Shown piece after piece: positions 1 through 53,839 of a DNA stretch of 57,647 nucleotides (the stretch's first letter is position 1; the number at the start of each line of letters is the position of its first letter). The stretch is from a virus. Lineage: Duplodnaviria > Caudoviricetes. The DNA lies in IMG/VR virus record IMGVR_UViG_3300017752_000012, positions 1 to 57,647 of that record; one strand, given 5' to 3'. Position numbers and translations under genes: made by a program. The notes beneath the pieces are model-generated. The model searched no databases. It saw nothing but the letters and a program-made list of their open reading frames with translations, and was not told where the DNA came from.

Positions 1-1
1 A

Positions 2-397
2 GGGGGCCAAGCATCTTTAACATTTGGTATCGCTGATACTAATGCGGTTAAAGTAGACCATGACGGTGTTGCAGACGATGACTATGCTAAGTTCACTGCT
101 AACGGTATAGAGGGTCGCAGTGCTTCAGAGGTTCTTACCGATATTGGAGCTCAGCCTGTTTTATCAGAAGGAGCATTTGCAAACGGAGATAAAACAAAGT
201 TAAATAATGTTGAGTTAAATGATCCGGAATTTGACAGTGTTATATTAGATAATCCAATTTCGACCACTAACTGGACAATTGAAGTTGATAACAGTGGTAG
301 TCTTGTTTTTAAATATGGCACTAACACGAGAATGAAATTAACTTTATCAGGTGAGTTAGTTGTAGATGACGACATTACGGCATTTGGAACTATATAA
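2..397 (+). CDS. Tail fibre protein, C-terminal fragment (5'-truncated by window)
   Basis: Open frame from nt 2 to TAA 395-397 (GGQASLTFGIADTNAVKVD...WTIEVDNSGSLVFKYGTNTRMKLTLSGELVVDDDITAFGTI). The G-x-L-x-V-x-x-D-I-T-A-F ending is typical of fibre tips that dock a separate adhesin. The stop overlaps the next ATG (TAATG). Confidence 0.7.
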   Translation, partial: GGQASLTFGIADTNAVKVDHDGVADDDYAKFTANGIEGRSASEVLTDIGAQPVLSEGAFANGDKTKLNNVELNDPEFDSVILDNPISTTNWTIEVDNSGSLVFKYGTNTRMKLTLSGELVVDDDITAFGTI

Positions 398-1020
398 TGG
401 CTACTCCCTTAACACAAAAATCAGGTAACGCATCTAGTAGTTTCGCTATATCTGCGAGTGATATAAACCATAGACTTGGTAATTCTGAAACTGCTGAAGT
501 AAGTATGAGCGATATTCCTACAAAATTACTGTTTTATCATGGCTTTACAACCGCACAGGAGATGGACTTTAAAGAGTTTTTAAACAAAACAAAAATAGTT
601 ACAGGAGTACTTTTTAACGTCAACATTGGATATCAAGCTGACTATTTCGGCTCCCAAATAGGAAGTATAACAGAGGATAGAATGGCAAGTGCTAACAATG
701 GAGGCTGGTATGCGGGCACTTCTGCTACACAATTAACAATAAGACAGATTATGTGGAATCAAAGCTCTAGTACGAGTAGAGTGGCTTTTCAGTTAGAAGA
801 ATCAGTAAGTGGTTCGGCGGTAGCATCAACAAATGGTTGGAGCAGTCTCTCAATACGTGCACTAATTGGATCACCCGCCTTTTCTACTAAAGAAGTTTTT
901 AAAAATAGTTACTCTAGTTTTAATGGTGCCACAGGTACTTACACTTGGACTAATGCTGTAGGATCAGTAAGCTCTCTAGGAAGCAGTTCAGGACTAGATA
1001 GATACATAGAGATAGGGTGA
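397..1020 (+). CDS. Putative tail-fibre tip adhesin / receptor-binding protein
   Basis: The N-terminal AISASDINHRLGNSETAEVSMSD...MDFKEFLNK resembles the fibre-attachment domain of phage adhesins. The C-terminus is Ser/Gly/aromatic-rich and beta-like. Translationally coupled to the fibre gene. Confidence 0.55.
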   Translation: MATPLTQKSGNASSSFAISASDINHRLGNSETAEVSMSDIPTKLLFYHGFTTAQEMDFKEFLNKTKIVTGVLFNVNIGYQADYFGSQIGSITEDRMASANNGGWYAGTSATQLTIRQIMWNQSSSTSRVAFQLEESVSGSAVASTNGWSSLSIRALIGSPAFSTKEVFKNSYSSFNGATGTYTWTNAVGSVSSLGSSSGLDRYIEIG

Positions 1021-1029
1021 GGATATAAA

Positions 1030-1392
1030 ATGAATTATACATATACTTGGAGAATAACAAATTTAGAAGCAATAAGAGAGCAAGATTCTCTTACAAATGT
1101 TGTTGCAACTGCTTGGTGGATACTAGAAGGTCGAGACGAAAATGGTAAATATGCAAGACACTGGGGAGTCCAACAGCTAAACACAGATAATATTAATCCT
1201 GACACTTTTACCACATATGAAAATCTTACAGAAGCTCAAGTAATTACTTGGGTTGAAAATACTCTTATTAATCAAGAGTCTGATTTTGGACTCTCTGGGG
1301 AATATGAAAATGTTGTAGAAATGATGAAATCAAAATTGAGAGCTATTATAGAAGAAGAAGATGTATATCGTAATACAGGAATACCTTGGTAA
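1030..1392 (+). CDS. Conserved phage protein, fibre-associated (possible fibre assembly chaperone)
   Basis: The YTWxITNL...VV...W...G...F..YENLTEAQVITWV pattern is common next to fibre genes. RBS GAGGA. Confidence 0.5.
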   Translation: MNYTYTWRITNLEAIREQDSLTNVVATAWWILEGRDENGKYARHWGVQQLNTDNINPDTFTTYENLTEAQVITWVENTLINQESDFGLSGEYENVVEMMKSKLRAIIEEEDVYRNTGIPW

Positions 1393-1411
1393 GTACTCCA
1401 AAAAATACTTC

Positions 1412-1440
1412 TTGACAACTTTGCTTAAACATGGTATAGT
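1412..1440 (+). promoter_or_regulatory. Sigma70-type promoter (extended -10) for the exported-protein operon
   Basis: TTGACA 1412-1417, 17-nt spacer, TG-n-TATAGT 1435-1440, A-tract upstream. Confidence 0.85.
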
Positions 1441-1478
1441 GAGCATATTAAAAATTAACCAAAACTTATAGGCTACAA

Positions 1479-2009
1479 ATGAAATTAAGGTACTTACTAC
1501 TTCTCTGCTTACCTTTAACGGTACTAGCTGCAGAAGATACAATAATTACAGAGTCGACTTCTACGAGTGACGTAAGCACTACTACTAAACTAGAGTCTCC
1601 TCCTCCTTCGGCAATCACGCCGACAATGAATATATCCAACTCTGACCTCTGTACAGTCGGAGTTGCGGGTGCAGTGCAAACCCAGATACTAGGTATCAGC
1701 ATGGGGACAACTGTACGAGACATGAACTGCGAAAAATTAAAGAATGCGAAGACTTTGTACGATATGGGTATGAAAGTCGCTGCTGTGTCTATTATGTGCC
1801 AAGACCAACGTGTATTTGATGCAATGATGAATGCAGGTACTCCATGTCCTTATGAAGGCCTTATCGGAGAAGCCGCAAAAGCAGCATGGGATGCAAACGT
1901 AGAAGAAACACCTGTAGAAATTGAAGCAGAGGAGATACTTGATGAAAAGACGAAACAAACTCTTTGGGGTCTTGGCAGCATCTTTGCTTTGCTCCTCATC
2001 TTACTCTGA
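1479..2009 (+). CDS. Exported Cys-containing protein with C-terminal membrane anchor
   Basis: Signal peptide MKLRYLLLLCLPLTVLA, Ser/Thr linker, four Cys in the mature core (DLC..MNC..MCQ..TPCP), hydrophobic C-terminus LWGLGSIFALLLILL. Confidence 0.75.
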   Translation: MKLRYLLLLCLPLTVLAAEDTIITESTSTSDVSTTTKLESPPPSAITPTMNISNSDLCTVGVAGAVQTQILGISMGTTVRDMNCEKLKNAKTLYDMGMKVAAVSIMCQDQRVFDAMMNAGTPCPYEGLIGEAAKAAWDANVEETPVEIEAEEILDEKTKQTLWGLGSIFALLLILL

Positions 2010-2790
2010 TAATATAGTTTATGGACAATCGAATGTAAATGCCCGTACTTGGGCAATGCAGAACGTATTACCACAACAAGCAGGACTTACAATTTCTCAC
2101 ATTGTATATGAATACAGTGTAGAGAAAGAAACACAAGATGCGATGTTGGTGCATGTTTCAAATGAAAATGCAATCAACGGAGGATACATCTTTCGATCTA
2201 CAGATGATTGGACAGGGCAACCTTCCAACACAGTGAAGAAGATTAAGCCAGCATCGCAACTTCCCATACAATTTTGGGGAAATGGATCGATAGAAACAGA
2301 AGGTTTCGGTACAGTTTTAAACCCTTCTGTAAAGTATAACTGGAGGTACGAACCTTGTTTCGATCCTCAGTCTGATCCAACATGTCCAGGGTACATGATA
2401 CCTTACGACTTGGAAGATATACTAGTAGAACCTGTAGATCCTCTTGAAGATCAATATATTCAAGAACAACTTGAAAGACAGGCATTGCTTGAAGAAGAAG
2501 AAGAGTTTGAGCGAAAAGAGCGTTTGAAGAAAAACAAGCGTGACATGGAAAAGCTCTTAGGCGGAATTAATACTAAACTTATGTCAGACCTTGCACTAGT
2601 TCAAGAAGCAGCATACTTTAGTATAAACTTATTTCCTACTTCATATTATAGTCCTTTAGAGGGCGGAACATATGAAGATGCCTTGCAACTGATTGATGCA
2701 GAGTTGCCGGACAACAAAGAGGGAAGACGAGTGAACTACACTCAACAAAAACTGCATGAAGAAATGATACAATCACAATATGATAATTGA
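1942..2790 (+). CDS. Exported protein: beta-rich domain, CxDPxxDPxCPGY motif and acidic coiled coil
   Basis: Start moved to ATG 1942 because of RBS GAGGAG at 1929-1934. Signal peptide MKRRNKLFGVLAASLLCSSSYS, then PCFDPQSDPTCPGY and an EEEEEFERKER helix. Confidence 0.7.
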   Translation: MKRRNKLFGVLAASLLCSSSYSDNIVYGQSNVNARTWAMQNVLPQQAGLTISHIVYEYSVEKETQDAMLVHVSNENAINGGYIFRSTDDWTGQPSNTVKKIKPASQLPIQFWGNGSIETEGFGTVLNPSVKYNWRYEPCFDPQSDPTCPGYMIPYDLEDILVEPVDPLEDQYIQEQLERQALLEEEEEFERKERLKKNKRDMEKLLGGINTKLMSDLALVQEAAYFSINLFPTSYYSPLEGGTYEDALQLIDAELPDNKEGRRVNYTQQKLHEEMIQSQYDN

Positions 2791-2797
2791 TTATCAA

Positions 2798-2813
2798 GAG
2801 TGCTTCGGCACTT
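2798..2813 (+). promoter_or_regulatory. cUUCGg tetraloop hairpin immediately 5' of the pilin-like gene
   Basis: GAGTGC-TTCG-GCACTT in the intergenic gap. There is no U-tract, so it is probably not a terminator. Confidence 0.6.
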
Positions 2814-2825
2814 AAGAGATATACT

Positions 2826-3317
2826 ATGAAGAAATCTTTGTTAGCAGCCGGACTTTTACTTTCTAGCGCAGCTTTTGCAAATGTTCCTATTACAGGTTCA
2901 GTAGCATCAAAATGCGTAATTAATGTAGATACTCCTGGCGTTTATGGTAACCCTTCTGCAAATCTACTAAGCACTGACCCTTCAGACGGTGGAGTTGTAC
3001 CTGTAGTTCGTTACGATATTATTAGCGCAGAGCTTTACAAAGCCAAAATTAGTTATCCTGACGAGTTTACAAGCAGTCCTTCTTTGAATGACGTTGTAAA
3101 CTGGACAGGCAGTGTAACAGTAAGTCAAACTTCAGACGAGTCAATGGCATCATTTGAGACAAACAAAGTAGAGTATAATAACACTACTGAGTATGATTTA
3201 GATGTGCAAGGCAGCGTTTGGTTTGATATTACTTCAACTGCAGACTATGGTTATGATAAATCCTTCCCTGGTGGAGACTATCAAGCAACCGTAACTGCGG
3301 AGTGTATTGCACTGTAA
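2826..3317 (+). CDS. Fimbrial/Csu-type pilin-like exported protein
   Basis: Start ATG 2826 gives the signal peptide MKKSLLAAGLLLSSAAFA. The mature N-terminus NVPITGSVASKCVI and the C-terminal strand GGDYQATVTAEC resemble chaperone-usher pilin subunits. Confidence 0.6.
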   Translation: MKKSLLAAGLLLSSAAFANVPITGSVASKCVINVDTPGVYGNPSANLLSTDPSDGGVVPVVRYDIISAELYKAKISYPDEFTSSPSLNDVVNWTGSVTVSQTSDESMASFETNKVEYNNTTEYDLDVQGSVWFDITSTADYGYDKSFPGGDYQATVTAECIAL

Positions 3318-3691
3318 TGCGATTCTGGGTTGTATTACTTGGTGTGTTAACTCATGGCTTCGTTTGGAGTCATGAGTTAACTCCCACTTACCCTACATTA
3401 GAGACTTCTTATATGTCAGGAGTTCTCAAAGCAGAAATGCATCTATTCAATAGTCGAAAGGATATCAACTATTATTCAGTCTCAGTCTACGATAAAGACT
3501 GGAAGCCTGTCAAATTTGCTACGGAAAGCAAAATCATACAAATGGACTATCTAGATCATAAAGATATAGAGGTCTATGTTCGCACAAAAGATCAAGAAAA
3601 AGCACATTATATTTGCACTAAATCGAAAATCCTGAAAGGTAAGAGTGCACCGACACTACTCGCATCAAGGATTTGTTCAAAAATAAAATAA
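3317..3691 (+). CDS. Exported single Ig-like protein, PapD-N/pilus chaperone-like
   Basis: ATG 3317 overlaps the pilin stop (TAATG). Signal MRFWVVLLGVLTHGFVWS, then LTPTY...MHLFNSR...YSVSVYD pattern reminiscent of PapD domain 1. Cys pair YICTKS...SRICS. Confidence 0.5.
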   Translation: MRFWVVLLGVLTHGFVWSHELTPTYPTLETSYMSGVLKAEMHLFNSRKDINYYSVSVYDKDWKPVKFATESKIIQMDYLDHKDIEVYVRTKDQEKAHYICTKSKILKGKSAPTLLASRICSKIK

Positions 3692-3700
3692 GAGGCAAGC

Positions 3701-4123
3701 GTGAAAAAGATAGTTTTATTGGCACTACTGGTAAGTAGTTCGACATGGGGACAAGGATCACTGAATCTGAACATCCCTCAGTCGAATCAAACCCATGCCC
3801 AAGATAAAATTAGATCAGGCAACGTTGATTGTCAGAATGCTATAGGTTCCTCTACGAATTTCGAGTTTGGAGTAGTTGGTATTATTGAACAAGGTGATAC
3901 CCCCTTTACTACTCAAATTCAAGAAGTACAAGATCAAGAATATCGAGACGTAGGAGTATACGCGCGCATAAATATTCCTATCGGCGGACCAAAAGAACGT
4001 ATCAACTGTAACACTCTGTATCAGTTGGAGCTAACAAAGAAACGTCTAGAAGTAGAGAAGCTACAGCGTGAGGTTATGCAATTACGTAAGCTTCAATTTA
4101 CAGACGATGTTGAGGAAAATTAA
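3701..4123 (+). CDS. Exported protein with Cys-flanked amphipathic beta-hairpin and C-terminal coiled coil
   Basis: GTG start, RBS AAGAGG. Signal MKKIVLLALLVSSSTWG, then DCQNAIG-NFEFGVVG...VGVYARINIPIG-RINC and the heptad helix LELTKKRLEVEKLQREVMQL. Confidence 0.7.
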   Translation: MKKIVLLALLVSSSTWGQGSLNLNIPQSNQTHAQDKIRSGNVDCQNAIGSSTNFEFGVVGIIEQGDTPFTTQIQEVQDQEYRDVGVYARINIPIGGPKERINCNTLYQLELTKKRLEVEKLQREVMQLRKLQFTDDVEEN

Positions 4124-4125
4124 AA

Positions 4126-4584
4126 ATGGCAGAATTTGAAATTGCAGGAATGACATTCAAAGGTGGGAAGATGGCGGTAATATTAACTGCTCTTTCTACG
4201 CTAGGTGGTGCTAGCTGGGCTGGCTTCGAGTTTTACAAAGATTATATGGACATGAAAGAAATTGTACAAAATATAGATGTAGACGCTATTGAGGCACGAA
4301 ATACTCAAATAGTGCAGAAACTAGACGATGCCATCGAATATACACGAGATATCAAATCTGGACTACGAGATGATATTCTGAGTATTGAAAAACAAGCAGA
4401 CCGTGTTGAAGACAAAGCCCGAAATATGGAAGAAAAAGTACGAGACATGATTGACAAAGCAAGTGAGCGATTTGAAACCAGACGAGATTCCTTAATTAAG
4501 GATAACAATAGAGAGCTGAAGGACTTAGAAAAACGACTTACAGATAAGATCCAAAAAGCACTTGATAATCCACTTGCAGACTAG
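4126..4584 (+). CDS. N-terminally membrane-anchored coiled-coil protein
   Basis: TM segment AVILTALSTLGGASWAGFEFY followed by about 110 aa of charged heptads. RBS GAGG. Confidence 0.7.
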   Translation: MAEFEIAGMTFKGGKMAVILTALSTLGGASWAGFEFYKDYMDMKEIVQNIDVDAIEARNTQIVQKLDDAIEYTRDIKSGLRDDILSIEKQADRVEDKARNMEEKVRDMIDKASERFETRRDSLIKDNNRELKDLEKRLTDKIQKALDNPLAD

Positions 4585-4602
4585 ACCTGAGAAAAATATC
4601 TC

Positions 4603-4631
4603 TTGACAATATAACCCTAAGTTAGTATAAT
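4603..4631 (+). promoter_or_regulatory. Sigma70 promoter for terS (probably leaderless transcript)
   Basis: TTGACA 4603-4608, 17-nt spacer, TATAAT 4626-4631. The ATG begins 7 nt after the -10 box. Confidence 0.9.
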
Positions 4632-4638
4632 ACGAGAC

Positions 4639-5103
4639 ATGGCAAAAGAACTCACTACAATCTCCCCAGAGGGACTGGAGATAGCAAATAGTTATTTACA
4701 GTTCGGCAATATTCGCGGTGTATGCGACTACCTCCAGGTACCTGAACAACAAGTAGTTGAAGTCCTTAATAAGCGTGAAGTAAAAAAGTATATCGATACT
4801 GTTTATCTAGATATGGGCTATCGCAATAAAAATAATATTGCTACTGTACTAGATGAAATGATTGCGTCAAAACTAGATGAAGCCCAGGAATCTGGAATGT
4901 ACTCTAGTAAAGATTTGGCAGACTTATTACAAATGGCTCATAAGATGCGTATGGATGAAATTAAAGCCCAAGCAGATTTAGAAAAAGCCCAGAGTAGCAA
5001 CATAAAGAACCAAACAAATGTGCAGATTAATGAAGCTGTCCCATTTGGTCAGGGAAATTATGGTAAGCTGATGGAGAAACTTCTCAAAGATGGAACAGAA
5101 TGA
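4639..5103 (+). CDS. terS: Terminase small subunit (T5-like)
   Basis: SPEGLEI..YLQ.G, EVKKYIDTVY.D.G.RN, AHKMRMDE.K and NQTNVQIN match my recollection of T5 TerS. Upstream of terL. Confidence 0.8.
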   Translation: MAKELTTISPEGLEIANSYLQFGNIRGVCDYLQVPEQQVVEVLNKREVKKYIDTVYLDMGYRNKNNIATVLDEMIASKLDEAQESGMYSSKDLADLLQMAHKMRMDEIKAQADLEKAQSSNIKNQTNVQINEAVPFGQGNYGKLMEKLLKDGTE

Positions 5104-5299
5104 AAAAATCAATGATCTTGAAAAGGGTCTCTATGCTCACGAAGTAATGTGTGAAGAACGGTGGAAGACTTGCTTTCAACGTTTAGAAGATGTCGAGACT
5201 TCTCTAAATAGAATAGAGACTCGTATGGTTCGTATAGGCGGAACAGTAATTATGTTCCTGGCGGGTGTGATAGTAACACTACTCACCCAATTGGGGTAA
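5090..5299 (+). CDS. Small coiled-coil plus C-terminal TM protein (XhlA/holin-like)
   Basis: HEVMCEERW..LEDVETSLNRIE followed by TM IGGTVIMFLAGVIVTLL. Confidence 0.55.
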   Translation: MEQNEKINDLEKGLYAHEVMCEERWKTCFQRLEDVETSLNRIETRMVRIGGTVIMFLAGVIVTLLTQLG

Positions 5300-5302
5300 G
5301 TT

Positions 5303-5371
5303 ATGCACTGTGCAGGTAAATCAAAAAAACGAAAAAAGAAAAAGGGCGGTAAAAAACGTAGGGGATACTAA
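5303..5371 (+). CDS. 22-aa ultra-basic peptide (not in the ORF track)
   Basis: MHCAGKSKKRKKKKGGKKRRGY*, with 12/22 residues K or R. Fills the gap exactly, and its stop overlaps the next ATG (TAATG). Confidence 0.55.
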   Translation: MHCAGKSKKRKKKKGGKKRRGY

Positions 5372-5523
5372 TGAAGTATAAGACTAAAAGAGCTGCAAGA
5401 AAAGCAGCAAAGCGTCTAGGGCTCAAAGGTATTCACTCACATGGTAGAGGGAAGAACAAGATCTACATGGCAGGTAGTACTCATAAAGCATATGAGAACG
5501 CCAAAAAGCGGAGAAAAAGATGA
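5371..5523 (+). CDS. 50-aa basic His-containing protein (not in the ORF track)
   Basis: MKYKTKRAARKAAKRLGLKGIHSHGRGKNKIYMAGSTHKAYENAKKRRKR*. Coupled at both ends (TAATG, ATGA). Confidence 0.65.
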   Translation: MKYKTKRAARKAAKRLGLKGIHSHGRGKNKIYMAGSTHKAYENAKKRRKR

Positions 5524-5741
5524 TTCAGATTTTTGAAAAACGTGGCAGATGGTGTTATCGAGATGATGCAGGAAGACTTCATAAGTTCGATACAGAAGCA
5601 GAAGCCAAGAGCTCTTTAGGGCTAGAGATCGTAGACGATGCCGAGAAAAAAATCGAAACGAAAAGTAACAAAGAAAAAGCCAATACCAACAAACAAAAAA
5701 CTGTACTCAACAGTAAAAGCAGCAACAAAAAGAAAATTTAA
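5520..5741 (+). CDS. Small hypothetical protein
   Basis: ATGA-coupled to the upstream ORF. IFEKRGRWCYRDDAGRLHKFDTEAEAK. The 3' end runs into the next gene. Confidence 0.5.
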   Translation: MIQIFEKRGRWCYRDDAGRLHKFDTEAEAKSSLGLEIVDDAEKKIETKSNKEKANTNKQKTVLNSKSSNKKKI

Positions 5742-5829
5742 AGTTTATCCCTCTGCTTATGCAAATGCCTACCTTGTAAAAGAGTATAAGAGAAGAGGTG
5801 GTAAGTACCGTATGGGAGTTAAGAAATGA
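5638..5829 (+). CDS. Basic protein (resembles N-half of DUF5872-type proteins)
   Basis: PTNKKLY..VK...KRKFKVYPSAYANAYLVKEYKRRGGKY motif, very K/R-rich. Confidence 0.65.
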   Translation: MPRKKSKRKVTKKKPIPTNKKLYSTVKAATKRKFKVYPSAYANAYLVKEYKRRGGKYRMGVKK

Positions 5830-6113
5830 AACCTCGTAAAAGCGGCCTTAGTAAATGGTTTAAAGAAAAGTGGGTAGATATATCCCGTCCAAAGAAAGGC
5901 GGGGGCTACAAATCTTGTGGTCGAAAGAAGGCAAAAGGAAAAGGATATCCTAAATGTGTACCGGCGGCAAAAGCTGCTCGTATGACAGCAGCCCAGAAAA
6001 GATCAGCTATTCGTAGAAAACGAAAAGCAGGAAATCCAGGGGGCAAGCCACGCAATGTTAGTACATTCGTGAAACGGAGAAAAAGCAGTGGCCGCAAAAA
6101 GAAAAAGAGGTAA
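5826..6113 (+). CDS. Basic protein (resembles C-half of DUF5872-type proteins)
   Basis: GLSKWFKEKWVDI...CGR...YPKCVP motif. ATGA-coupled. Confidence 0.65.
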   Translation: MKPRKSGLSKWFKEKWVDISRPKKGGGYKSCGRKKAKGKGYPKCVPAAKAARMTAAQKRSAIRRKRKAGNPGGKPRNVSTFVKRRKSSGRKKKKR

Positions 6114-6396
6114 GAAGAAAGATTCTCGTCTTGCACGAGCAAGAGTAAAAGGCTACAATAAACCTCGTCGCACGCCTGGACATTCGAAGAAGTCACACAT
6201 CGTTGTGGCAAAAGTAGGTAGTAAAGTTAAAACTATTCGTTTCGGTCAGCAGGGAGCTAAAACGGCAGGGAAGCCGAAGGCCGGAGAGTCAGAAAGAATG
6301 AAAAAGAAACGTGCGTCATTTAAAGCAAGACACGCAAAGAATATAGCTAAAGGCAAAATGTCTGCGGCATATTGGGCGAATAAAGTAAAATGGTAG
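6088..6396 (+). CDS. Basic conserved viral protein (K.IRFGQQG...R.SFKARH...SAAYWA family)
   Basis: GTG start. Motif recurrent in phages and large DNA viruses. Very K/R-rich. Confidence 0.65.
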   Translation: MAAKRKRGKKKDSRLARARVKGYNKPRRTPGHSKKSHIVVAKVGSKVKTIRFGQQGAKTAGKPKAGESERMKKKRASFKARHAKNIAKGKMSAAYWANKVKW

Positions 6397-6719
6397 AAGA
6401 AACTAAAACTGTAGAAGGCTTAGAAGGCGCTGACCTAAACGGTGATGGTCATATTTCCCAAGAAGAGCTAGAACTTCATTTAGAGTTCAAGCGTAAAGAA
6501 ATGGAAGACGCTGACGCAATGCGAGATGCTCAACGGAATATGGCATGGTTTGCTTTAGGCGGAATGCTACTATACCCCTTCGCAGTAGTGGTTGCAGAGC
6601 TAATAGGTCTGGACAACGCATCAAAAGTACTTGGAGATATGGCTCCGACCTATTTTGTCTCTGTAGCAGCAATTGTAGCCGCGTTTTACGGCAAAGAAGC
6701 ATTAACAGGTAAAAAATAA
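6390..6719 (+). CDS. EF-hand-containing two-TM membrane protein (holin-like)
   Basis: Canonical 12-residue loop DLNGDGHISQEE. TMs MAWFALGGMLLYPFAVVVA and YFVSVAAIVAAFYG. Basic C-terminus. Confidence 0.65.
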   Translation: MVEETKTVEGLEGADLNGDGHISQEELELHLEFKRKEMEDADAMRDAQRNMAWFALGGMLLYPFAVVVAELIGLDNASKVLGDMAPTYFVSVAAIVAAFYGKEALTGKK

Positions 6720-7303
6720 TGGAATTTATAATTGATTTAGCAGTAACCTTTTGGCAGTGGACAGTAGTAATTGCAGTAATTGCAGTAAGCTACTTAATTA
6801 ATAAACTAGATAAACCAGATCTAAAGCGCATTAATTTTGAGTATACTACAATGCCTAAAATGCAACCGCTACCGATTAAAACAGCAAGTAAAGGTTTCTG
6901 GGGCGCCATATTAATGTGGATCACTGGCACACGTCAGTGGGTAATCACAGAAGACTTCCACTACTGGATCGAAAACCAAGCGTATAAAATTCCTGCAGGC
7001 TTTCAGTTTGACGGCGCATCAGTCCCCAAGTTTCTTGCGACCTTCCTGTCGCCTGTGGGAGTTCTGTTGATGGGCGGCTTGGTACACGACTATGGTTATA
7101 AGTATGCTACTCTTATGAAAAAAGACGGCAGCAACATCGGCCCTCGTGACCAAAAATATATGGATGGTCTCTTCCGAGACATCTGTATCGAAGTGAACGG
7201 CTTCTATGCACTTAACTACTTAGCATATTGGGCACTACGCCTAGCAGGTTTTGTAGCCTGGAACGGACATAAAAAGAGAGGTACTCATGTCGTATCTAAG
7301 TAA
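6719..7303 (+). CDS. DUF1353-family protein with N-terminal TM
   Basis: IPAGFQFDGASVPKFL...LVHDYGY...D.LF signature. TM FWQWTVVIAVIAVSYLI. Confidence 0.7.
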   Translation: MEFIIDLAVTFWQWTVVIAVIAVSYLINKLDKPDLKRINFEYTTMPKMQPLPIKTASKGFWGAILMWITGTRQWVITEDFHYWIENQAYKIPAGFQFDGASVPKFLATFLSPVGVLLMGGLVHDYGYKYATLMKKDGSNIGPRDQKYMDGLFRDICIEVNGFYALNYLAYWALRLAGFVAWNGHKKRGTHVVSK

Positions 7304-7445
7304 ATTAATAAAACAACGTACATCCTGGGACGGGATTGTACTTATTGGCATTTGTGGATCAGTCATATTATTAGGTGGTTTAGCAAAACTACTAGCATGG
7401 GTTGGTCTTGGTTACGGAATTTGGACACTACTAAAAGACGAATAA
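7287..7445 (+). CDS. 52-aa two-TM membrane protein (holin-like; not in the ORF track)
   Basis: RBS GAGAGG. MSYLSKLIKQRTSWDGIVLIGICGSVILLGGLAKLLAWVGLGYGIWTLLKDE*. Confidence 0.65.
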   Translation: MSYLSKLIKQRTSWDGIVLIGICGSVILLGGLAKLLAWVGLGYGIWTLLKDE

Positions 7446-7446
7446 T

Positions 7447-8751
7447 ATGGCAGTTGAAATAAGTCGGAGGGACATACCTTCTGATGAACTAGCAGAATAC
7501 AGATCTGAGACAAGGTTTCTAAAATTACCAGTCGATCCTTATTTGGATTTACTGAATATCACACCGTTGCCTTCGCAGATAGCAATTATCAATGCGATTA
7601 ACAACCCTAAATATCGTTTTGTCTCAGCAGCCGTTTCTCGACGACAAGGCAAAACGTACATCGCCAATATCATTGGACAGCTCGTGTCTTTGGTACCTGG
7701 CTCCAACATTTTAATCATGTCTCCCAACTACTCCTTGTCTCAGATCTCTTTTGATCTACAAAGAAATTTGATTAAACACTTTGATCTAGAAGTTACAAAA
7801 GACAATGCAAAAGACAAAGTTATTGAAATATCAAACGGCTCCACAGTAAGAATGGGGTCTGTAAATCAGGTGGATTCTTGTGTGGGCCGGTCTTATGACC
7901 TAATTATATTTGACGAAGCGGCACTAGCCGATGGAAAGGATGCTTTCAATGTTGCACTGCGCCCTACCCTTGATAAAGATAATTCTAAAGCCATTTTTAT
8001 ATCTACTCCCCGTGGCCGTAACAACTGGTTTTCTGAGTTTTTCTATAGAGGATTCTCCGATGAGTTCCCTGAGTGGTGTAGTATACGTGCAACTTACAAA
8101 GATAACCCACGAATGAGTGAAACAGATATCGCAGAAGCGCGTAAGTCGATGTCAGAAGCGGAGTTTAGACAAGAATATGAAGCAGACTTCAACACATACG
8201 AAGGACAGATCTGGAAGTTCAACTTTGAAACACAAGTCAAAGACTACTCACAGTTCGATACTAGTGGAATGGATGTATTCGCGGGGCTGGATGTCGGTTA
8301 CAAAGACCCAACAGCCATGTGTGTTATTGCGTACGATTGGGATAAAGAACAATACCATTTGGTGGACGAATACTTCAATGCTGAAAGAACTACTGAACAG
8401 CATGCTGCCGAGATACAGAAGCTCATTGATCGCTGGGATATTGATTACATTTATATTGACAGCGCAGCTCAACAAACAAGGTATGATTTCGCGCAGAACT
8501 ACGACATTTCCACCCTCAACGCAAAGAAGTCCGTACTTGACGGAATTGGACATGTGTCAGGGGTTGTTGACAACGACATCCTCTTTGTTGATCAAGAAGC
8601 AAAAGAGTCTTTGAGTTGTTTAGATGCGTATCAGTGGGATCCAAACCCTAATCTTATGAAGGAAAAACCGAAGCACAACATGGCATCGCACATGGCAGAT
8701 GCGTTGCGCTATGCATTATACTCATTTCAAACCTCAAATATATCCTTTTGA
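7447..8751 (+). CDS. terL: Terminase large subunit
   Basis: Walker A SRRQGKT, Walker B IIFDEA, coupling motif ISTP, nuclease GLDVG...D and HMADALRYA. Confidence 0.95.
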   Translation: MAVEISRRDIPSDELAEYRSETRFLKLPVDPYLDLLNITPLPSQIAIINAINNPKYRFVSAAVSRRQGKTYIANIIGQLVSLVPGSNILIMSPNYSLSQISFDLQRNLIKHFDLEVTKDNAKDKVIEISNGSTVRMGSVNQVDSCVGRSYDLIIFDEAALADGKDAFNVALRPTLDKDNSKAIFISTPRGRNNWFSEFFYRGFSDEFPEWCSIRATYKDNPRMSETDIAEARKSMSEAEFRQEYEADFNTYEGQIWKFNFETQVKDYSQFDTSGMDVFAGLDVGYKDPTAMCVIAYDWDKEQYHLVDEYFNAERTTEQHAAEIQKLIDRWDIDYIYIDSAAQQTRYDFAQNYDISTLNAKKSVLDGIGHVSGVVDNDILFVDQEAKESLSCLDAYQWDPNPNLMKEKPKHNMASHMADALRYALYSFQTSNISF

Positions 8752-8774
8752 TGATACCAACTCAAAAATAATGT

Positions 8775-8803
8775 TTGACAAGTTAGCTTAAAGTCGATAT
8801 AAT
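8775..8803 (+). promoter_or_regulatory. Sigma70 promoter for the head operon
   Basis: TTGACA 8775-8780, 17-nt spacer, TATAAT 8798-8803. Confidence 0.9.
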
Positions 8804-8835
8804 TCTTTAGATAAAAAATAAGGAATCAAAGGAAA

Positions 8836-9201
8836 ATGCCTAAGTTAAAACGTGATTATGTAAAGTATGTACGAGATAAGGCAAAGTCCAAGTACGAGAA
8901 GGGTTCCTCTTGCGAGATTTGCGGTGCAACAGAGCAGTTAGACTTTCACCACTTTTACAGTCTCACACCATTGTTAAACAAATGGATAAAAGATAACAAT
9001 CACAATCCCGAGTATATTCAAGCACTTCGGGATGATTTTATAGAAGAGCATCATGCTGAGCTCTATGATCACACGGCTACTTTGTGTCATACTCATCATT
9101 TGAAACTTCATTCAATTTACGGTAAAGATCCAGCACTGACTACAGCTACAAAGCAGATGCGTTGGGTAAAGATTCAAAGAGAAAAACATGGCTTGGTATA
9201 A
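8836..9201 (+). CDS. HNH-like nicking endonuclease (T5-type, between terL and portal)
   Basis: CEICG...LDFHH...TLCHTHHLKLH. Same position as the T5 nicking-endonuclease gene. Confidence 0.75.
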   Translation: MPKLKRDYVKYVRDKAKSKYEKGSSCEICGATEQLDFHHFYSLTPLLNKWIKDNNHNPEYIQALRDDFIEEHHAELYDHTATLCHTHHLKLHSIYGKDPALTTATKQMRWVKIQREKHGLV

Positions 9202-10375: not shown

Positions 10376-10686
10376 CACCTGGAAAAAATAGACAACAAGC
10401 AAAGTATCAAGCAATACTACGGATTTCAAAATACTTTGTAAAGAATAAGACATGGGTTACGGAAGAAGATTATAATAAACTTGGAAGATTAAGTACTCCT
10501 TGTTTACCTAAAAATTTGTATAGAATATTTGGAACATATAAAGATATGTTACAGTATTTGGAAGTAGGTCCAATGGCAGATGAAATTAAAATGCTAAAAC
10601 CTAAACCGGTAGTAAAAAAGCCTAAAGCATCCGCTAAGCCTAAAACGGTAAAGCCTGCTAAAGCAAAGGAGAGTAAAGATGAATAA
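10372..10686 (+). CDS. Hypothetical basic protein, possibly DNA-binding
   Basis: T..DY...P....YRIFGTY..ML helical motif plus a Lys/Pro/Ala-rich tail. Coupled to the portal gene. Confidence 0.55.
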   Translation: MTPGKNRQQAKYQAILRISKYFVKNKTWVTEEDYNKLGRLSTPCLPKNLYRIFGTYKDMLQYLEVGPMADEIKMLKPKPVVKKPKASAKPKTVKPAKAKESKDE

Positions 10687-12769
10687 GTTATTTAATCTTA
10701 CATCCACATTTAAGTCTCATGAAGCAGACGATGGATCTGTAATGATACGAGGAATGGCTAGTACAGCTGACTTTGATCGCGCGGGTGATTCCATTTCAGC
10801 AGAAGCCTGGACTAAAGGTGGATTATCAAATTTTGAAAAAAATCCAATTATCTTGTTTAATCACGATTATGACAAGCCAATTGGTAGAGCTACGGGGTTG
10901 AAAGCTGGTCCTAATGGCTTGGAACTGGAATGTAAAATTAGTAAGGCAGCGCCTGCTAATGTTGCACAATTAGTTAAAGACGGTGTTCTTGGAGCCTTTT
11001 CTGTTGGTTTTCGAGTCAAGGACGCTGATTACTTAAAGGAAACCGACGGACTAATGATTAAGGACGCTGAGTTGTTTGAGGTATCGGTAGTATCTGTACC
11101 ATGCAATCAGTCAGCTACTTTTTCGCTCGCGAAGTCTTTTGACTCAGATAAAGAGTACGAAGAATTCAAAAAAACTTTCACAAATCGTGTAGATCTAGCC
11201 GGTCAGTCTCTGGCTAAAGACGAAGTTAATACTTCTAGCGTAGCTAGTGACACACCGAAAAGCGCGGAGAAATCCGCAGATCAGGAGATCAAGATGGATA
11301 ATCAAAACATCGACTTGGAAGCTTTTGCAAAGAAAGTAGCAGAAGATACTGCCGCTAAGATTGCTATGAAGCAAGCCGAGCAAAAAGCAGCTGACGAAGC
11401 CACCGCTAAAGCAGCTCAAGAAGCAGAAGAAGCGAAAGCTTTAGAAGCACAATCAATTAAAACAGTTATCAACTCTGGTGTAGAATCAGGTGTTGAAAAA
11501 CTTATGGGCGACGTTGAAGCTAAACTAGCTGAAAAAGACGCAAACCTACAAGAAATCATGGGTACTTTCCAGAAAGAACTTGACGAGAAGAAAGCAGAAA
11601 TCGAAGCTATGCAAAATAGCAAGAAGTCTTTCTCTGATCGTGGTTCTGATCTAAGTGCGTTCGGTAAGGACTTCCTTGGTGCTCACATTCTTGGTAAAGT
11701 AACTGGCAAAGGTTATGACACTGACTATGCTAAGTCTATTATGGCTAAAGCAGGTGTTGCTTATACAGCTAACTCTTCAGACACAGGTAAGCTAGATACT
11801 CTTTCTCAAACAGCGTTTGAAGAAGAAATGGTTCTAGAGCAAAAAGTTGCGGGTCTATTCCGTGAGCTTGCTGTAAACTCTGGCGCAACTGTAATTCCTA
11901 CAGTTACTGATACTAATACTGCTACTTTCTCATCAGGCGGTCTTGAAACTGGTTATTTGACCAACCGTACTGTTGGTACTGCTAACAGCTATGATATGGG
12001 CAGCGTTACTGCATATGCTAATCGTCTAATCTCAGGAACTTATATTCCTGCGGATACCGATGAGCAAACTTTTGTAACTATTCTGCCAATGATTCAATCA
12101 GCTCTAGCCCGTGCTCACGCTCGTGCAGTTGATCAGGCAATCTTGTTTGGTACAGGCACGGGTACTGCAGCCTCTCAACTAGTTGGTCTAGTTGGTTCAG
12201 CAGGTATTGATGGCTCTAGTTCTGATGGCGCTGCTGATCATGACGGTCTTGCAGGCGATGCTGCTGCAAGTGCTACAGCTAAAAATTCTGTTACTGCACT
12301 TACTGCTATGGCTGCTCGTGCTGAAATGGGTAAGTATGGTATTAATCCTGCAGACGTTGCTTATATTATGGGTACTGATGCTTACTACAGCATGATCGAC
12401 GCTACTGCTGATGGCGCAGACTTTACAAGTATTGATGAAGTGGGCGTAGGTGCTACTAAGTTAAGTGGTCAATTAGGTTCTGTTTATGGCTCACCAGTAA
12501 TCGTTTCAGATTTGCTTGATACAGACCCTAACAATGCTTTCAACCATGATGGTGATGATGGCACAACAGCAGCTCTTAACCTAACAGGTACTGCGTGTAT
12601 TGCAGTTAATCGTAATGCGTTTGTTATTCCACGTCTTGGTGGTGTTAACATTGAAAGCGACTTTGAAGTTGCAAATCAACGCACTGCTGTAGTTGCTAGC
12701 CAATCTCTTGGCTTCACTCAATTGGAAGGCGGCGCTAAAGCAGCTATCCGAATTAAGAGCACTACTTAA
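10679..12769 (+). CDS. Prohead protease - scaffold - major capsid protein fusion (HK97 fold)
   Basis: aa 1-150 is an HK97-type protease (ILFNHD, FSVGF, LFEVSVVSVPCN). aa 206-320 is a coiled-coil delta/scaffold domain, then the capsid (ARAVDQAILFG, G..YGSPVIVSD). No stop codon separates them. Confidence 0.9.
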   Translation: MNKLFNLTSTFKSHEADDGSVMIRGMASTADFDRAGDSISAEAWTKGGLSNFEKNPIILFNHDYDKPIGRATGLKAGPNGLELECKISKAAPANVAQLVKDGVLGAFSVGFRVKDADYLKETDGLMIKDAELFEVSVVSVPCNQSATFSLAKSFDSDKEYEEFKKTFTNRVDLAGQSLAKDEVNTSSVASDTPKSAEKSADQEIKMDNQNIDLEAFAKKVAEDTAAKIAMKQAEQKAADEATAKAAQEAEEAKALEAQSIKTVINSGVESGVEKLMGDVEAKLAEKDANLQEIMGTFQKELDEKKAEIEAMQNSKKSFSDRGSDLSAFGKDFLGAHILGKVTGKGYDTDYAKSIMAKAGVAYTANSSDTGKLDTLSQTAFEEEMVLEQKVAGLFRELAVNSGATVIPTVTDTNTATFSSGGLETGYLTNRTVGTANSYDMGSVTAYANRLISGTYIPADTDEQTFVTILPMIQSALARAHARAVDQAILFGTGTGTAASQLVGLVGSAGIDGSSSDGAADHDGLAGDAAASATAKNSVTALTAMAARAEMGKYGINPADVAYIMGTDAYYSMIDATADGADFTSIDEVGVGATKLSGQLGSVYGSPVIVSDLLDTDPNNAFNHDGDDGTTAALNLTGTACIAVNRNAFVIPRLGGVNIESDFEVANQRTAVVASQSLGFTQLEGGAKAAIRIKSTT

Positions 12770-24443: not shown

Positions 24444-25408
24444 TGGCTACTGCTCCTTTTACAAATATATTACCAGATCCTTCTAACCATATTAATATTA
24501 CTGGACAGGCAGGAACTGGAACCGGTTTTAATTCTGGTCCGGGTTTTGCAAGCTTTAAACTTAATTCTCAGTTTAAAACTTCGTATAATACTACTAATTC
24601 TGGTAGAACTATTACATCTTCTTCAGGAGGGCACAAATGGTCTCTAGCAATAGAATACAATCCTTTAACTAGAGACGAGTTTGAACCTGTTTATAATTTT
24701 TTAGGCTCTAAACAAGGCAGGCTAGAACATTTTTTTGTACAAATGCCAGAAACCAATCTAAGATCTGTTCCTTTTAGAAACTTTATAGGAGCATCTAATG
24801 ATACTTTTTATGTGTATACAAGCCCTGTAACTGCGCAACTTTTAGAGCTACATAGAGAATATAAAATAAAAGACAGCTCATCTCAGTGGCAGACTGTAGG
24901 AGCAGCTACCGGATCAACTTCAGTGGGAGATACTTTTATAGCTACAGGTCAATCAGCAGTCGGGACACATCTTGCAGCTCCCACATATGAAAAAGCGGGG
25001 CAGGATAATCTTACTATTGCCAACGAGCTTACTGGTTATAGTCTTACTACACACCAAACTCCAAGACCTGGAGACTTATTCACTATTAGTGATCCTTCTG
25101 ATTCTAGCCATACAAAACTTTATAAAATTAATAAAGTAGAGACTAGTACAGATAATGCTAATGCTATTCAAAATCAGTATGATAAATCTGAACCGGCATC
25201 AACAACGGTCACTGGTACAGATACCGTATCGCCCTGTATAAGGATTCATTTCACCCCCGAACTTCAAAAAAATGTATACGCTGGAGCTGTAATAAAGTTC
25301 TCTAACCCTATGATAAGGGTTAGAATGACGCAAGACGTACAAGAGTACTCTTTAAACACAGAAAATCTATACTCTTTTTCTTTACAACTTGAGGAGGCTC
25401 AAAAATAA
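24443..25408 (+). CDS. Distal tail protein (Dit, T5 pb9-like) with insertions
   Basis: LPDP, PGFAS, HKW.L.I.YNPLTRDEF, PRPGDLF....HTKLYKI, LYSFSLQLEEA. Follows the tape measure gene. Confidence 0.8.
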   Translation: MATAPFTNILPDPSNHINITGQAGTGTGFNSGPGFASFKLNSQFKTSYNTTNSGRTITSSSGGHKWSLAIEYNPLTRDEFEPVYNFLGSKQGRLEHFFVQMPETNLRSVPFRNFIGASNDTFYVYTSPVTAQLLELHREYKIKDSSSQWQTVGAATGSTSVGDTFIATGQSAVGTHLAAPTYEKAGQDNLTIANELTGYSLTTHQTPRPGDLFTISDPSDSSHTKLYKINKVETSTDNANAIQNQYDKSEPASTTVTGTDTVSPCIRIHFTPELQKNVYAGAVIKFSNPMIRVRMTQDVQEYSLNTENLYSFSLQLEEAQK

Positions 25409-53016: not shown

Positions 53017-53766
53017 TTATTCTCCAATAAAATCTAATAAATTAGTTATGATTTCTACGCCAGAGTCTCTGGCTTTCTTAGTTTTAGCGGACTCAACTCC
53101 GCTTTCGTTAACCAGTATTGTAACATCCTTTGTCAAACTTGTTTTGGTTACATATCCAAGTTCTTGTAGTTTAGCATTTGCCTCTGCTTTAGTTTTGAAA
53201 CTACTCAGTTTACCACTAATACATACAGTGCCTTTCGCTACCTCGACAACTCTAGGGCTGTCGAACTGAAAGTCAAAAGGTAAAAGACTAACATAATAGA
53301 ACTCGTCCTCGATCCATGAGGTAAGATTACTACTCGCTTTATCGCCAAGACCAGCCTTACGGCACAAATCATAGTCTATTTCTTCAATGTCTTTGCAGAC
53401 TCTCGATAGCTTTTCCGCGGCACTTTTGCCGATAAGCGGGATGCTGAATGCAGGTAATAACACATTCAGGGGTGCAGAGCGAGATCTCTGTAGTTCATCT
53501 AATAACTTGACTGCCAATCTATCAGAAGATAGAGCCTCGGATACATCATCAAGCGATAAGTCATAGAGTTCCTCGAGGGAGGTTATTCCTAACTTCTTAA
53601 TGGTTGCAGGGCCGAGACCTTTGATCTTCAGAGTCTTAGCAAAGTGTTCAATGAGCTTCAGAGATTTCTCTCCGCATTTGGGGTTTCTACAATACAGAAG
53701 ATGATTGACTTCTTCGAGAACCGAGCTGCAACTGGGGCAAACTGTGGGTGCTTCGATGAATGTCAT
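53017..53766 (-). CDS. ligB: NAD-dependent DNA ligase subunit B (Zn finger, HhH, BRCT)
   Basis: CPSC...C.N..C, IKGLGP, IPLIG, VCISGKL...SAKTKKA...GV. Confidence 0.9.
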   Translation of the reverse strand: MTFIEAPTVCPSCSSVLEEVNHLLYCRNPKCGEKSLKLIEHFAKTLKIKGLGPATIKKLGITSLEELYDLSLDDVSEALSSDRLAVKLLDELQRSRSAPLNVLLPAFSIPLIGKSAAEKLSRVCKDIEEIDYDLCRKAGLGDKASSNLTSWIEDEFYYVSLLPFDFQFDSPRVVEVAKGTVCISGKLSSFKTKAEANAKLQELGYVTKTSLTKDVTILVNESGVESAKTKKARDSGVEIITNLLDFIGE

Positions 53767-53792
53767 GGTCTCTCCTCTGAAATTGAAATAGT

Positions 53793-53821
53793 ATTATACG
53801 GAAATTTAAGGTTTCTGTCAA
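53793..53821 (-). promoter_or_regulatory. Sigma70 promoter between the ligase subunit genes
   Basis: TTGACA 53821-53816, 17-nt spacer, TATAAT 53798-53793. Confidence 0.9.
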
Positions 53822-53839
53822 GAATTATTTTTCTACAGG

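Follow-up and report, generated by a model that had tools for sequence, protein, structure and literature searches.

The described systems closest to the locus reported here are spanins, exclusion lipoproteins and chaperone-usher pili. Two-component spanins such as lambda Rz/Rz1 pair an i-spanin with an o-spanin. The i-spanin is anchored in the inner membrane in type II orientation and has a coiled coil in the periplasm; the o-spanin is a small outer-membrane lipoprotein with a lipobox Cys, and its gene lies inside that of the i-spanin or beside it. In the unimolecular spanin T1 gp11 a lipoprotein signal and a C-terminal transmembrane segment are found in one protein. Llp of phage T5 belongs to the Cor-type exclusion lipoproteins, each a single small protein that inactivates the receptor. 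Chaperone-usher pili are built with an outer-membrane usher of ~800 aa and a two-domain PapD-like chaperone, from pilins that have an incomplete Ig fold and a donor strand at the N-terminus. To our knowledge, the opening of the outer membrane by abundant marine phages is largely unannotated. The preprint bioRxiv 10.1101/515445 puts the share of phages of Gram-negative hosts that lack a recognizable spanin at ~15%. Here we analyze a cassette of six genes, g1 to g6 (Table 1), on a virus contig of 57,647 nt (IMG/VR record IMGVR_UViG_3300017752_000012, positions 1 to 57,647), which is called the window throughout.

Judged by gene content across loci, a very common, uncharacterized phage module has g1, g2 and g6 as its core, and g3 to g5 are add-ons of its six-gene version. 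All six products are predicted to be aimed at the envelope, and the triad is often linked to genes assigned to lysis. We tentatively read the cassette as encoding a periplasm-spanning, spanin-like or lysis-accessory complex.

A six-gene unit with envelope-directed products

The cassette consists of six co-oriented open reading frames (ORFs) on the plus strand, from 1479 to 4584, which lie between two near-consensus sigma-70 promoters and are separated, in order, by -68, +35, -1, +9 and +2 nt. Sites that match TTGACA-N17-TATAAT within one mismatch occur eight times in the window where 0.76 are expected, and none of 100 shuffled sequences reaches eight. Operons on either strand are preceded by promoters of this class, so the cassette is transcribed separately, as a unit of the kind usual for this phage. 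Host-type consensus promoters appear to be used for replication and structural genes alike. A looser promoter scan of the window finds 18 sites with 22.6 expected and is not above chance. No terminator-like site was found between 4584 and 4603, and the cassette has the GC content of the neighboring DNA and forms no compositional island.

Targeting was called from Kyte-Doolittle hydropathy, the -3/-1 pattern as seen by eye and conservation, not with SignalP, on protein alignments of 25-34 homologues per gene. The N-terminal 15-residue Kyte-Doolittle maxima of g1 to g5 average 1.55-1.92, and these N-termini are signal-peptide-like and conserved. g6 has no signal peptide; in all 29 homologues a hydrophobic segment at about residues 16-34 is predicted to form a membrane helix (lowest 15-residue maximum 1.21). 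Invariant Cys residues are C58, C84, C107 and C123 in g1, C139 and C148 in g2, C30 and C160 in g3, C100 and C120 in g4, and C44 and C103 in g5; g6 has none. g1 and g2 also have Cys residues within their signal peptides, but these are not conserved and form no lipobox. Even numbers of invariant Cys in the five signal-peptide-bearing proteins suit periplasmic disulfides. An earlier annotation of this DNA, the original prediction, had proposed a six-gene unit with its own promoter, closed by the promoter at 4603, with all six products targeted to the envelope and Cys pairs in the first five. Each of these points is borne out; both promoters belong to the eight-site class (Table 1), and the paired Cys residues are invariant across homologues.

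None of the six proteins reaches a curated Pfam or NCBIfam cut-off, and PHROG matches are to families of unknown function only. NCBIfam and PADLOC give nothing for g1 to g5, PDB sequence-profile searches with these five are blank or at chance level, and the scores of g6 in PADLOC and PDB are coiled-coil noise. In the ESM Atlas, g1 and g6 fall into unnamed viral clusters, with a structure model for neither. Megablast of the cassette and tblastn of g3 against isolate phages return no match. A literature search, supplements being outside it, found no description of these genes, passages of bioRxiv 10.1101/2019.12.14.876532 included.

From N- to C-terminus, g1 consists of a signal peptide, a stretch rich in Ser and Thr, a four-Cys domain that is highly conserved, an acidic linker and a tail that is hydrophobic (mean Kyte-Doolittle value 2.39). 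It matches phrog_20531 at 4e-15. Its Ser/Thr/Asn-rich spacer varies from ~25 to ~250 residues across homologues, and the longer homologues contain no informative fused Pfam domain. The AlphaFold2 model of g2 has a jelly roll at residues 26-136, with a predicted local distance difference test (pLDDT) above 85, and helices at 167-205 and 259-280. Cys139 and Cys148 lie in a C..CPGY motif, and the conserved last helix ends in QY. Foldseek places the Ena endospore-appendage subunit first among the matches to the g2 head; the others include capsid proteins, tail-needle knobs and carbohydrate-binding modules (CBMs), and all are generic jelly rolls. g3 is modelled as a beta-sandwich at pLDDT 92 with a Cys30-Cys160 pair, and its family has 111 representatives among 1.84 billion. 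Cleavage of the g4 signal peptide is predicted to leave an invariant His as the first residue (A/HE.TPTYP, cleavage at the slash) and a mature protein of ~106 aa; g4 has weak matches to PHROGs of unknown function only and no PDB match. g5, also without a PDB match, has a conserved Gly/Val-rich, beta-like segment that holds Cys44 and Cys103, followed by a C-terminal heptad-repeat helix with invariant E110/E117/E124 and L121/L128 spaced 7 residues apart. In g6 the juxtamembrane FEFYKDYMDMKE motif and the C-terminal ALDNPLAD are conserved and the coiled coil is variable. Its profile matches are generic coiled-coil or apolipoprotein-like only, and its family has at least 7836 homologues in public metagenomes.

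Conservation of the cassette in relatives

With g3 and g2 as seeds we obtain 77 viral loci. In 54 of them the complete set of six is found with its order unchanged, and for the other 23 we read the layout to mean that the missing genes would fall beyond the contig ends. Identity across the 77 loci drops to 30-60%, so the six-gene cassette is not one clone. A cassette-independent seed, terS, gives 80 loci, and all six genes are found in 29 of the 30 that have at least 3.4 kb of upstream flank. The overlap of g1 and g2 is kept in 54 of 55 loci. The original prediction had named a failure of the genes to co-occur in other genomes as what would refute it; they do co-occur, in these two sets and in 7 of the 34 loci described in the next section.

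Within the lineage (16 loci) identities are 76% for g1, 54% for g2, 65% for g3, 53% for g4, 60% for g5 and 78% for g6, with 88% for terS. Cassettes that are 95-99% identical adjoin unrelated upstream fiber genes, and the two genes upstream of the cassette in the window are found in none of the 77 viral loci. The cassette thus does not co-vary with neighboring fiber genes. In five loci (L048-L051 and L068) a class 3 lipase and a staphylococcal-nuclease-like gene lie between g5 and g6, and such genes also occur within or beside the module in L088, L089, L093 and L086. These Lipase_3 and SNase neighbors were considered as parts of an envelope module and set aside, as both are without signal peptides.

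The core triad in unrelated phages

When species genomes are scanned with the g1 profile, 34 loci emerge, all on contigs from metagenome-assembled genomes (MAGs) or single cells that carry phage genes. Seven have all six genes, 13 have g1 and g6 only, seven have g1 alone and seven are cut by contig ends. In the 13 loci with g1 and g6, the two genes lie ~2-3 kb apart and frame a single secreted g2-like protein of 540-850 aa; g3 to g5 are absent. Comparison of g2 with these long forms by hhalign gives a probability of 94% and E 1.5e-7 over the last 70 columns. Both have an N-terminal domain of the QQAGL..Y.Y.V type, as judged by eye, and a C-terminal helix. Tandem copies of the Cys-..-CPGY unit and long low-complexity spacers are further features that the long form shares with g2. 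Fission of a long g2 into g3, g4 and g5 is ruled out by hhalign probabilities below 2%.

The triad is carried by T4-like contigs encoding gp32 and gp59, an SU10-like podovirus, the lambdoid freshwater podovirus MW202481, the pelagimyophage Mosig and the pelagiphages HTVC115P, HTVC023P, HTVC033P, HTVC202P and Baldr. Variant modules, in which g2 is replaced or not evident, are found in the roseophages CRP-810 and CRP-207 and in MW202675; in CRP-810 a helical signal-peptide protein takes the place of g2. Tblastn with g1 finds 13 phage records, among them six Pelagibacter phages, two Roseobacter phages and Ralstonia phage RSP15, in which a g1-like gene is present and no g6 was detected. The g1 domain is 52-58% identical to Pelagibacter phages over the matched stretch, which is ~50-57% of the protein. 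This identity argues for a target common to Gram-negative envelopes and not for a host-specific receptor. Core proteins are 35-60% identical across phages of SAR11, roseobacters and freshwater hosts. The triad is ancient and widespread.

Several database names in these loci find no support. The g2-like gene of MW202481 is named TonB, and its product has no Pfam family at E 1e-4, the TonB C-terminal domain included. The OmpA family label of CRP-810 gp53 is not borne out by Pfam at E 1e-4. CRP-810 gp51, annotated as lysozyme, and CRP-207 gp73, annotated as putative lysozyme, belong to the g6 family and are without a lysozyme domain. Both have the N-terminal transmembrane segment, the coiled coil and the ..NPL end, and they are excluded from the endolysin counts below.

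A small EF-hand-like protein with two hydrophobic segments is encoded downstream of terS in the window. Its homologues directly adjoin g6 in L080, L086 and L096, which makes it a probable detached member of an extended module. It is kept in all T5-like relatives examined (L155, L187, L202), and it may belong to this system as a holin-like or regulatory component.

Linkage to lysis genes

Of the 21 loci whose flanks were scanned, 8 have a gene of a holin or endolysin family no more than ~2 kb from the module (Table 1). Depositor annotation gives 3 of 7 further phage records, namely HTVC023P (peptidase M15), HTVC033P (lysozyme) and MW202675 (chitinase A), so that a lysis gene is found near the module in 11 of 28 related loci. 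The chance estimate is ~3-15% for one lysis cluster per 40-150 kb genome, and not every lineage counts as independent. The genes of MW202481 run g1, g2, g6, an SprT-like gene, a three-transmembrane holin-like gene and lysozyme; an Rz/Rz1 pair is not annotated there, and none follows the lysozyme. That the triad recurs next to holin and endolysin genes in phages unrelated to each other suggests lysis or egress and not superinfection exclusion.

A second recurrent position of the module is directly before or between the terminase genes, as in the window, HTVC202P, Baldr, CRP-207 and L187. T7 has its genes for holin and spanin in a position of this kind, around gene 18. Replication genes surround the module in the T4-like contigs.

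A proposed periplasm-spanning complex and its alternatives

In the lysis reading, g1 and g6 would sit in the inner membrane and hold g2, here together with g3 to g5, across the periplasm toward the wall and the outer membrane, and the complex would be active in envelope breakdown at lysis. The most likely job would be that of a spanin, disruption of the outer membrane once the wall is cut, or alternatively aid to holin and endolysin. The spanin job would be done in this lineage without the usual outer-membrane lipoprotein. A bolder form of the proposal is less probable but has a real chance. It would make g1-g2-g6 a new and very widespread class of trans-envelope machine that replaces canonical spanins in many marine and freshwater phages, pelagiphages included, with the span formed here by separate subunits, of which g3, a pilin-like beta-sandwich, may polymerize without an usher.

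Several results weigh against a lysis complex. No holin or endolysin was detected in the 57.6-kb contig by a PHROG scan of 45 proteins and a Pfam scan of 17, so the lysis link is borrowed from other lineages, and 17 of the 28 related loci have no lysis gene nearby. Pfam and NCBIfam searches reveal no similarity to Rz or other known families, and g6 has no Cys, unlike lambda Rz. A conserved lipobox is found in none of the g1 to g5 alignments, and there is no plus-strand lipoprotein ORF in positions 1-9000. The lysis cluster of L093 holds its own small lipoprotein, which could be the real spanin partner. At the terS position the cassette is absent from 5 of the 64 terS-seeded loci with at least 600 nt of upstream flank (L150, L152, L154, L155 and L161). 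In L187, L202 and L204 a different three-gene variant after terS replaces the cassette; it encodes a g1-like protein of 239 aa, a helical secreted protein of 285 aa and a g6-like protein of 152 aa. Such absence or swap among close relatives looks like the behavior of an accessory cassette. The fast divergence of g2, g4 and g5 would equally fit an arms-race or exclusion function, and the position of the cassette is syntenic with T5 oad/llp.

Variant modules do encode small proteins that have a canonical lipobox. Those of CRP-810, CRP-207 and MW202675 lie directly upstream of the g1-like gene, each with a copy of half the g1 Cys domain; the context of the CRP-810 lipoprotein was not found in viral contigs. 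L202 and L204 have a lipoprotein of 78 aa (ILAGC) ~1 kb downstream of the three-gene variant. From these variants we infer that the family also has outer-membrane forms anchored by lipid, besides the inner-membrane forms anchored by a helix.

The synteny with T5 leads to the first alternative, superinfection exclusion or receptor masking, in which an envelope complex would block phage adsorption or DNA entry, or keep progeny off debris, as T5 Llp does. That llp is found by terS in T5, as the original prediction stated, is confirmed; it adjoins oad-terS-terL there, and the place of the cassette between the tail-fiber genes and terS corresponds to this llp/oad-terS slot. Its own promoter gives it a moron-like look, it is missing or swapped in some close relatives, and three of its genes diverge fast. 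We consider exclusion unlikely, though still a serious rival. No exclusion system is known to come near a count of six genes. The conservation of the core across SAR11, roseobacter and freshwater phages is unlike that of receptor-specific maskers, nearly identical cassettes stand beside unrelated fiber genes, and the core repeatedly adjoins holin and endolysin genes. The only PADLOC match is the coiled-coil noise of g6.

The adjacency to lysis genes is shared by a second alternative, a periplasmic sensor or antiholin-type device that would tune holin triggering and would not itself break the outer membrane. The linkage of g6 in three loci to homologues of the EF-hand-like protein with its two hydrophobic segments is in favor of such a lysis-timing regulator, and so is the fact that the module is not universal in close relatives, as expected of a modulator. 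The long variable spacers of g1 and g2 and the outer-membrane lipoprotein variants better fit a periplasmic bridge, and Pfam and PHROG searches give no similarity to known antiholins, which together leave a timing device improbable.

The original prediction itself put the cassette forward as a candidate for a minimal pilus without an usher or for a surface-remodelling system, with a filament or an envelope-spanning complex on the infected cell. As a pilus, g3 would polymerize by donor-strand exchange, g4 would serve as chaperone and g5 as outer-membrane pore, and a fiber would be formed on the infected cell. The pilin-like character of g3 is weak and lies at the level of the fold: it is a beta-sandwich, and its best Foldseek matches in the PDB are CfaB, the PapG pilin domain, FimG, CsuA/B, Caf1 and PapA (probability 0.92-1.00). 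The best fold match of the g2 head is an appendage subunit as well, that of Ena. The pilin matches are weak, with E of at least 2.7e-3 and template-modelling (TM) scores of 0.37-0.43, none is at E 0.001 or better, and the AlphaFold2 model is a closed sandwich. Against viral models (BFVD), g3 has no Foldseek match at E of at most 0.001. At the sequence level neither Pfam nor PDB profiles link g3 to pilins, a widened g3 alignment included. Neither an usher nor a PapD-like chaperone is present, and the Pfam families Fimbrial, SCPU, PapD and Usher have no match in the cassette at E up to 1. The largest cassette product has 282 aa, which is far below an usher. g4, with 124 aa including the signal peptide, matches neither PapD_N nor PapD_C, and its mature form is about half the size of PapD-type chaperones, which have ~200 aa.

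Conserved motifs flank the g3 domain, V-P-I-x-G-x-V before Cys30 at the N-terminus and a FP.G.Y.A.V..C strand at the C-terminus, and they may resemble the donor-strand and F-strand motifs of pilins. The signal peptide, a G-[TS]-x-x-x-C start and a FP.G.Y.A....C end persist in the most distant members of full length; for the distant g3-like proteins P0344 and P0336 a genomic context was not found in viral contigs. Three-copy complex prediction of mature g3 (residues 19-163) scores 0.26 and 0.25 with the mark at 0.42, and since controls were not run this speaks neither for nor against polymerization. g3 to g5 are dispensable in most carriers of the module, and because most carriers lack them, a filament cannot be the general function of the module. 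We regard a pilus as very unlikely. That the six are virion or assembly proteins, tail-fiber accessories at the end of the structural region, is hardly credible: the cassette follows tail-fiber genes in the window, HTVC115P, CRP-810, L093 and L097, and among the folds similar to the g2 head are tail-needle knobs and capsid jelly rolls, but tailed-phage virions assemble in the cytoplasm, conserved signal-peptide-like N-termini are found on five of the proteins and membrane anchors on two, and T4-like contigs hold the module among replication genes.

The g6 family occurs in cultured pelagiphages and roseophages, and no member has an assigned function. If the triad disrupts the envelope, it would supply a missing step in the lysis pathway of viruses that are among the most abundant in the ocean, and would offer a model of membrane bridging that needs no lipoprotein. 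If it serves instead in exclusion or at the cell surface, no known system of that type would be as complex. Under either reading the function can be tested in the cultured carriers HTVC023P, HTVC115P and CRP-810.

Other features of the window

The window derives from a distant T5-like phage, with a TerL at most 50% identical to those of T5-like Vibrio, Pectobacterium and Providencia phages. The gene order is fiber genes, cassette, terS, TerL, portal, protease-capsid fusion, tail genes, a tape measure of 1493 aa and an ORF of 3547 aa, after which the replication genes follow on the opposite strand. Coordinates are collected in Table 1. A protein of 69 aa with a C-terminal hydrophobic segment resembles the gene transfer agent (GTA) head formation family NF048001 (E 8.7e-7, below the cut-off), and a homologue of it precedes g1 in MW202481. 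Between terS and TerL lie small, extremely basic, Lys/Arg-rich proteins (DUF3721, DUF5872, phrog_23735, phrog_7595), which are conserved in relatives. One ORF of 696 aa matches both a head maturation protease (phrog_80) and a major head protein (phrog_617), which suggests a protease-capsid fusion. The single ORF of 3547 aa follows the distal tail protein and has no PHROG match at E 1e-5; presumably it is a giant baseplate or central fiber protein. NAD-dependent DNA ligase is split over two adjacent ORFs (phrog_3498, phrog_3359).

Table 1. Positions of the cassette, of neighboring genes and of features in related loci
Sequence	Feature	Position	Strand	Remarks
Window	Cassette promoter	1412..1440	+	TTGACA-17-TATAGT, extended -10 TG; 11/12 positions
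Window	g1, 176 aa	1479..2009	+	Signal peptide, four-Cys domain, C-terminal hydrophobic anchor; triad core
Window	g2, 282 aa	1942..2790	+	Signal peptide, jelly roll, C..CPGY; start overlaps g1 end; triad core
Window	g3, 163 aa	2826..3317	+	Signal peptide, beta-sandwich, weakly pilin-like fold; six-gene version only
Window	g4, 124 aa	3317..3691	+	Signal peptide, invariant His, Cys100/Cys120; six-gene version only
Window	g5, 140 aa	3701..4123	+	Signal peptide, Gly/Val-rich segment, heptad-repeat helix; six-gene version only
Window	g6, 152 aa	4126..4584	+	N-terminal membrane helix, coiled coil; triad core
Window	Promoter before terS	4603..4631	+	12/12 positions; closes cassette unit; terS = phrog_3802 at 6.8e-39
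Window	69 aa protein	5090-5299		
Window	Basic Lys/Arg-rich proteins	5371-6396		Between terS and TerL
Window	EF-hand-like protein, two hydrophobic segments	6390..6719	+	DxNGDGxIxxEE motif; EF-hand_5 at 1.6e-4, below Pfam cut-off
Window	696 aa ORF	10679-12769		
Window	3547 aa ORF	25408-36051		
Window	Split DNA ligase	53017-54772	-	
Window	Near-consensus sigma-70 promoters	1412, 4603, 8775, 16447	+	Precede operons
Window	Near-consensus sigma-70 promoters	44802, 50858, 53821, 54828	-	Precede operons
L187	Three-gene variant	3618-5585		Close T5-like relative; between terS and basic proteins
L202	Three-gene variant	716-2695		Close T5-like relative; between terS and basic proteins
L204	Three-gene variant	2632-4602		Close T5-like relative; between terS and basic proteins
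L113 (CRP-810)	Small lipobox protein	5615-5872		LLSAC
L113 (CRP-810)	gp51, g6 family	7219-7641		
L196 (CRP-207)	Small lipobox protein	~1728-1937		LLAGC
L196 (CRP-207)	gp73, g6 family	3292-3873		
L198 (MW202675)	Small lipobox protein	886-1101		LVAAC
L080	Three-transmembrane holin, GH19 enzyme	0.3 kb after g6		
L086	GH19	0.24 kb from module		
L093	Phage_lysozyme	1.6 kb from module		
L096	Endolysin PHROG	0.34 kb from module		7.8e-77
L097	Holin	2.0 kb from module		
L104	GH108	0.4 kb from module		
L114 (Mosig)	Holin	0.23 kb upstream		
L115 (MW202481)	Holin-like gene, lysozyme			

Comparison with described systems

Jelly-roll fiber and knob domains (Ena, Sf6 tail-needle knob, CBM4/22) share with g2 the arrangement of a jelly roll at residues 26-136 followed by a long helix. 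The TM-score normalized to the g2 query is 0.18-0.27, a generic match that implies no function. With the chaperone-usher pilins CfaB, FimG, PapG pilin domain, CsuA/B and Caf1, g3 has in common a secreted beta-sandwich with one disulfide. In g3 the disulfide joins the first and last strands, and the cassette differs from these systems by the lack of an usher, a two-domain chaperone and a Pfam or PDB sequence match. T5 Llp is alike in its position by receptor-binding or fiber genes and terS and in having its own promoter. Llp is a single lipoprotein of ~60 aa, whereas the cassette has six genes, none for a lipoprotein, and a core conserved far beyond T5-like phages.

The unimolecular spanin T1 gp11 resembles g1 in its N-terminal export signal, periplasmic domain and C-terminal membrane anchor. 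g1 differs in that no lipoprotein signal or conserved lipobox is present, and also in its helical-looking four-Cys domain, its variable spacer and the absence of sequence similarity. Compared with the two-component spanins, the module has three to six components instead of two, there is no lysis gene near the cassette in the contig, and the six-gene version has no lipobox lipoprotein in the role of an o-spanin. What it shares with lambda Rz/Rz1 is the predicted i-spanin layout of g6, with an N-terminal transmembrane segment, a periplasmic coiled coil, a conserved C-terminal tip and a length of ~150 aa, together with overlapping genes (g1/g2), a holin or endolysin nearby in 11 of the 28 related loci and a small lipoprotein in some variants.

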